A DNA stretch of 1,796 bases from Escherichia coli (GTDB lineage: Bacteria; Pseudomonadota; Gammaproteobacteria; Enterobacterales; Enterobacteriaceae): assembly GCF_003334815.1 (NCBI RefSeq), contig NZ_QOWO01000093.1; one strand, written 5' to 3'. Position numbers and translations under genes: made by a program. Positions 1,705 through 1,796 of this stretch are shown here, one piece after another (within the stretch, counting starts at the first letter, position 1; every line of letters starts with the position of its first letter). The notes beneath the pieces were generated by a model. The model ran no database searches. It was not told where the DNA came from and saw only the letters and a program-made list of their open reading frames with translations.

Positions 1705-1796
1705 TATCAGGCCTGCCGTGGGGATTTTGTGGTGCGTCTCGACGGCAGCACCTGTCTGCAGTTATGGAATAAAGAAGGCAGGGTGGTACGCCGGGA

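Follow-up and report, generated by a model that had tools for sequence, protein, structure and literature searches.

Short open frames at the edges of a 1,796-bp Escherichia coli plasmid window: the impB 3' end and a chance frame over a ydeA remnant

The window analysed here is a stretch of 1,796 nucleotides of Escherichia coli DNA, taken as a whole, and the features recognized in it are listed in Table 1. Over its full length, the window shows 100% identity to positions 27213-29008 (minus strand) of NZ_LT985321.1, the plasmid RCS85_pI of E. coli ECOR 3, which is conjugative (MOBP/MPF_I) and of IncI1 type. At least 80% of the window is covered by 391 further plasmid records. The perfect match to RCS85_pI made it possible to extend both window edges, and the extension used NZ_LT985321.1 with 5 kb on each side, where a position in the extended stretch minus 5000 gives the window position (negative values lie upstream of the window).

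Table 1. Features of the window and of the reference gene ydeA (window positions unless stated otherwise)
Feature	Position	Strand	Basis or remark
impB 3' end, codons 374-423 and TGA	1-153	+	RefSeq CDS WP_158538278.1 ends at 153
Diverged last ~18 impB codons, mosaic point	100-153	+	ColIb-P9 homology (99%) stops at 99
8-bp iteron array, upstream	179-257		9.9 copies of TATCTTAT/TATCTTGT
parA	381-1007	+	NF041546 ParA_partition, E = 1e-45
Small second gene (100 aa), taken as parB-like partition partner	1004-1306	+	Annotation
8-bp iteron array, downstream	1310-1360		6.4 perfect copies of CTTGTTAT
Tn3-derived miniature inverted-repeat element, putative TIME class	1419-1704		286 bp; right end is the ydeA truncation point
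ydeA 3' remnant, frame 1	1705-1796, on to stop 1888-1890	+	Last 61 codons, Y136-P196 (ColIb-P9 numbering)
Chance open frame, frame 2, from GTG 1718	1718-1796	+	Overlaps the ydeA remnant; stops at 1850-1852
53-aa ORF from an internal GTG of the ydeA remnant	GTG 1729 to stop 1890	+	'YdeA protein' or 'hypothetical protein' of some gene callers
Full-length ydeA of ColIb-P9	ColIb-P9 11029-11616		196 aa

Homology to the plasmid ColIb-P9 covers window positions -1198 to 99 and resumes from 1705 to 4100. Between these two blocks, positions 100-1704 stand in place of 9,063 bp of ColIb-P9 (11212-20274), which contain the 5' part of ydeA, ydfA, a DUF4238 gene, a resolvase gene, another ParA-family gene and parM/parR. 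The replacing module of 1.6 kb comprises parA, the small parB, the iterons and the miniature element. The window edges thus lie in conserved IncI1/ColIb-type backbone, and the middle of the window is an exchanged module. The layout of parA and parB within the module is that of a predicted type Ib partition locus with putative centromere-like sites on both sides. Palindromes are present at 279-371, where the parA promoter region contains one of 15 nt that is perfect (341-371), along with related arms. A search of the whole window against Rfam in the permissive E-value mode gave no match.

At the left edge, the initial annotation had noted a frame open from base 1 to a TGA at 151-153 and had considered it a possible part of a flanking gene. 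The frame is present as described, and the extended sequence bore out this suggestion, since the frame is continuous with upstream polymerase domains and makes up the last codons of a 423-codon gene. The gene product, WP_158538278.1 (423 aa, positions 3882 to 5153 of the extended stretch), is annotated as a "Y-family DNA polymerase" and matches the model NF002955 (UmuC, Pol V catalytic subunit; model length 422) over residues 1-421 with 798.2 bits (cutoff 431). On their own, the 50 residues from the window match model positions 373-421 of 422 with E = 9.5e-22. The Pfam architecture of the protein consists of IMS, IMS_HHH, IMS_C and DUF4113, the last of which occupies residues 372-421, and the window thus encodes the C-terminal domain (residues 374-423) in frame. 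These matches show that the left edge is the true 3' end of impB, the plasmid gene for the predicted catalytic subunit of a translesion polymerase resembling Pol V.

Like ImpB of the IncI1 impCAB operon (ColIb-P9, R64 and TP110), the protein belongs to the UmuC/MucB family of Pol V catalytic subunits, and as in ColIb-P9 its gene lies downstream of a dinI-like impC and a umuD-like impA. It is 423 aa long, compared with 424 aa for ImpB of ColIb-P9, and the two genes share 99% nucleotide identity up to window position 99. From there on, the last ~18 codons are strongly diverged (with the tail LSPAYTTRWTDLPVAQL in the window and LSQCYTTKWRDIPLARLG in ColIb-P9), with different nucleotides and a preserved family pattern. 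Such divergence directly after 99% identity places a recombination junction inside the 3' end of impB, with the last ~18 codons derived from a different impB-like allele. Downstream of impB, a ParA/iteron partition cassette is found here, whereas ColIb-P9 has ParM/ParR (stbAB-type) genes at this place.

A further difference from ColIb-P9 lies upstream of impB and outside the window, at position ~3682 of the extended stretch (window about -1318), where impA has one additional G in a G-run. This +1 frameshift leaves an ORF of 92 aa instead of 145 aa, and an intact UmuD-type operon partner (impA) is not present in this record, which does not affect the identity of impB. The frameshift may truly inactivate the Pol V-like operon, or it may have arisen from a sequencing error in the homopolymer; unless it is an error, impB may be intact yet idle in this plasmid.

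At the right edge, nucleotide homology to the full-length ydeA genes of ColIb-P9 and of the IncF plasmid p0.1229_1 begins exactly at window position 1705. Translation of frame 1 from this base gives YQACRGDFVVRLDGSTCLQLWNKEGRVVRREGDPLEVAQWLLACHDAGIEVRVQINESAAP up to the stop codon, and 59 of the 61 residues (97%) are identical to the C-terminus of both the ColIb-P9 protein (WP_000194553.1, 196 aa) and the ydeA product of p0.1229_1 (169 aa). Seven more distant YdeA homologues show 57-89% identity to the frame-1 remnant, all of them in gapless alignments. Frame 1 is conserved as protein in these 9 homologues, and third-position changes predominate: the differences at codon positions 1/2/3 amount to 12/13/31, 11/11/32, 12/9/32 and 11/12/36 in four homologues with 69-74% amino acid identity. 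This excess of third-position differences is the signature of a protein-coding frame. The right-edge sequence is indeed derived from coding DNA, as the initial annotation had considered, but in frame 1 and as the 3' remnant of ydeA rather than the start of a gene.

The name ydeA is used for this gene in the records MF554641 and MF554637, and in pS88 the gene is listed between ybaA and ydfA (PMC3438092). At least 4954 plasmid records carry the complete gene. Downstream of the remnant, the window's plasmid retains the order of the ydeA unit of ColIb-P9, pS88 and pUA1135, with ybaA/DUF6404, the colicin Ia/Ib immunity gene and the colicin gene. Unlike the complete gene in the ydfA-ydeA unit of IncI1 and IncF plasmids, the copy at the window edge has only the last 61 of 196 codons, having lost the N-terminal 135 codons with the predicted winged-helix domain, as well as ydfA and the operon promoter. 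In pUA1135, RT-PCR showed that ydfA, ydeA and ibfA are transcribed together as a single unit, the promoter of which lies upstream of ydfA (PMC12111858). In the extended record, ydfA is absent from the locus, and a promoter and terminator scan of window positions 1300-2000 returned nothing, with no sigma-70-like site among its results. All close copies of the junction between the miniature element and ydeA are nearly identical to one another.

The consequences of the truncation for the protein were considered using an AlphaFold model of ColIb-P9 YdeA, which was built on a shallow alignment of 8 sequences and has a mean pLDDT of 77 and a pTM of 0.50. In this model, the protein comprises a winged helix at the N-terminus, one long helix, a linker that is disordered (residues 105-122) and, at the C-terminus, a small domain rich in beta-strands (127-131, 134-138, 140-145, 151-156, 162-167 and 185-190). 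A Foldseek search with the N-terminal part produced weak matches to regulators of the HxlR, MarR and PadR types (E about 5e-4). The model and these matches suggest that YdeA is a winged-helix (MarR/PadR/HxlR-like) protein. Searches of the full-length protein against NCBIfam, Pfam and PADLOC assigned it to no significant family, with JetA (E = 0.0037), PaaX (E = 0.23) and acylphosphatase (E = 7e-4) as the best matches, all of them far below the cutoffs, and a sequence search of the PDB returned only IdeR as a weak match (E = 0.016). Klebsiella versions of YdeA carry an additional C-terminal extension of ~210 aa. On the model, both the start of the remnant (residue 136) and that of the 53-aa ORF within it (residue 144) fall in the C-terminal domain, and the winged helix is wholly missing.

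In addition to these losses, the window's copy carries the substitution Q177L at a position occupied by Q in 8 of the 9 compared homologues and by H in the remaining one (L010). The missing promoter, ydfA and winged helix, together with Q177L, argue that the remnant is a dead, non-functional gene end, and we infer that it is not expressed. In the RefSeq (PGAP) annotation of pE2855-1, the span corresponding to window 1705-1890 is recorded as a partial pseudogene ('incomplete; missing N-terminus'). A different view could be taken of the 53-aa ORF, the product of which equals residues 144-196 of full-length YdeA, as a functional small gene that is expressed and useful, for example through interference with the full-length YdeA of co-resident plasmids. 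Gene callers have predicted this exact sequence on more than 1000 contigs of the protein collection, UniRef names it 'YdeA protein', it holds the 25 invariant residues of the C-terminal block of the family, and GGGGA is located 4 nt before GTG 1729; its calling in many records and the GGGGA mean that some translation of the remnant may still occur. However, this GTG and the GGGGA are merely internal codons (R-G-D-F-V-V) of the full-length gene, and the ORF begins in strand 3 of the modelled beta-domain (140-145), which makes it an incomplete fold unit. It also has neither the operon promoter nor ydfA, the 400 bp upstream contain no promoter-like site, and both Q177L and the PGAP pseudogene call apply to it as well. 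A functional small gene is accordingly an unlikely explanation for the 53-aa ORF, and the remnant is better described as a dead gene end. The 90%-identity cluster of the 53-aa fragment also includes a protein of 400 aa with a eukaryote-like sequence (P0013), which has no visible similarity to the fragment and is therefore probably a clustering artefact of the protein collection.

The initial annotation had pointed to another frame at this edge, which starts at a GTG (1718-1720) and is open for 26 codons to base 1795. This frame, too, is present as described, and its GTG start and openness up to the window edge would be compatible with the 5' end of a flanking protein-coding gene. In the extended sequence, however, it continues for only 18 codons past the window to the TAG at 1850-1852 (44 codons in total), and upstream it is open back to GTG 1673, within the inverted repeat of the miniature element. 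Neither the 44-aa product (from GTG 1718) nor the 59-aa product (from GTG 1673) was present in an exact look-up among ~15 billion proteins. In gapless alignments, frame 2 has premature stops in 7 of the 9 homologues, the stop in ColIb-P9 resulting from one substitution that leaves the frame-1 residue unchanged, and only the three closest homologues retain GTG 1718. No annotation covers frame 2 in any of the records inspected. A flanking gene starting at GTG 1718 is thus highly improbable, and the frame is an accidental one that lies open over the ydeA remnant. An even smaller probability attaches to the proposal that the right edge belongs to a minus-strand ORF of 83 aa (window 1655-1906). This ORF is also open across the window edge, but it starts antisense to ydeA and ends within the miniature element, its product is absent from the protein collection, and it is interrupted by stops in 7 of the 9 homologues.

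The lengths of the two flagged frames were also compared with chance. At the base composition of the window, the per-frame chance of 50 open codons, as on the left, is ~0.035, and that of 26 open codons, as on the right, is ~0.17. In ~43% of shuffled windows, one or more forward frames reached this length at the right edge, a frequency that speaks against a gene at GTG 1718, and the same openness is found at 71% of all hypothetical right edges inside the window. Of the six frames at the actual right edge, four remain open for at least 26 codons. Thus, the left frame exceeds chance and the right frame does not. The proposal that both edges carry parts of flanking genes held for the left, where the impB end was found, and failed for the right, where the frame and the end of the gene were both wrong. 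Lack of homology for the extended frames had been named at the outset as evidence against a gene, and this is what the extended GTG-1718 ORF showed.

Taken together, it is very probable that the window begins with the 3' end of impB and ends in a non-functional ydeA remnant, that the GTG-1718 frame is open by chance, and that the middle is an exchanged module. Both edge features are ordinary and already known, since RefSeq annotates a Y-family polymerase for impB and a partial pseudogene for the ydeA remnant, and neither departs surprisingly from its own family. The two flagged frames carry little biological weight: the left one is the end of a well-known gene, and the right one is open by chance across an annotated pseudogene. 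Their value is mainly one of calibration: chance alone gives short open frames at window edges, and the correct right-edge frame could be recognized here only through diverged homologues.

The miniature element adjoining the remnant has terminal inverted repeats of the form GGGGTCCGCTTGGAA...ACGCTAAG and GGGGTCCGCTTGGAA...ACGTTAAG (in full, GGGGTCCGCTTGGAAAAGGGAAATTTTCCCACGCTAAG and GGGGTCCGCTTGGAATTCGGAAAATAAACCACGTTAAG), which are typical ends of the Tn3 family. It contains no transposase gene, and its longest internal ORF is 58 aa. For comparison, the sequences of IMU, TIME244, MITESen1 and IS101 were taken from Table S2 of PMC13367494. The element resembles the named TIMEs in its ~38-bp Tn3-family terminal repeats (GGGG...ACGYTAAG), for which IMU and TIME244 have the closest counterparts, and in being small, transposase-free and plasmid-borne, often without direct repeats at rearrangement junctions. 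In contrast, its interior is unrelated to those of IMU, TIME244, MITESen1 and IS101, with global identity at background level, and similarity is confined to the inverted repeats.

The last base at the outer end of this element (1704) directly adjoins the break in ydeA (window 1705). The window copy has no 5-bp target-site duplication, its left flank being TAATA and its right flank TATCA, and no target-site duplication was seen at three other inspected copies of the element. The location of the break at the element end and the missing duplication argue for an adjacent deletion or for recombination between elements, and against a simple insertion. In the first case, the part of ydeA 5' of codon 136 would have been lost in an adjacent deletion by intramolecular replicative transposition; the alternative route would be recombination between two copies of the element. 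Both routes are proposed on the basis of the junction position and the absent duplication.

No element simply inserted in an intact ydeA was detected with a chimeric query made of the 5' part of ydeA and the left end of the element. The single full-length match of this query was NZ_CP076712.1, in which the junction is a different one, 84 bp further 3'. In this IncF record (extract 2477-2970), the element borders with its left end on an internal piece of ydeA, another part of the gene than in the window, and with its right end interrupts a colicin DNase gene in the 3' part. NZ_CP076712.1 is thus a second case in which the element and ydeA meet, independent of the one in the window. The pentamer TAATA, which is the left flank in the window and the right flank in NZ_CP076712.1, was considered as the trace of one insertion and rejected as uninformative, because AT-rich pentamers are the usual targets of the Tn3 family and the surrounding contexts differ.

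Other copies of the element were found in a range of contexts, including next to rop (L012), next to cvi (NZ_CP055180.1) and cut by IS26 (L015). At a coverage of at least 80%, the element is present in 540 of 5426 complete E. coli genomes (10%), and 1631 of the 1662 matching places in complete E. coli genomes are located on plasmids. At least 738 plasmid records contain a copy at the same coverage of at least 80%. Among the matches listed, most copies are unannotated and a few coincide with a 'hypothetical protein'. For Enterobacteriaceae, the MITEs in ISfinder are given as MITEEc1, MITEKpn1 and MITESen1, to which the new MITEEc2/TIME244 has been added, and the four TIMEs that were counted occur in 0.06-2.3% of complete Enterobacteriaceae genomes (PMC13367494). 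At 10% in E. coli, the present element is much more frequent than this range for the named TIMEs in Enterobacteriaceae, with the proviso that datasets and thresholds differ.

One end of the element is also part of a PCR primer. The primer cva/cvi-F (TCCAAGCGGACCCCTTATAG) consists of the terminal 14 bases of the element and a 6-base flank next to cvi; its site is located at 1494-1515 of the NZ_CP055180.1 extract, where the element end is the same as at window 1419-1432. From this composition, a widely used APEC/ExPEC assay anneals to the end of a mobile element and not to cvi or cvaC.

We tentatively suggest, as a possibility that is still rather doubtful, that the element is a so-far unnamed TIME which is far commoner than the named ones and marks rearrangements of IncI and IncF plasmids, the apparent ORF at the right edge of the window being its scar. 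The rearrangements repeatedly marked by its ends would include the truncation of ydeA in the window, the ydeA junction of NZ_CP076712.1 and the sequence flanking the ColV operon. For curators of mobile elements and for plasmid typing, these observations could provide a note on an abundant, unannotated Tn3-type element that is found at backbone junctions and underlies the cva/cvi primer.
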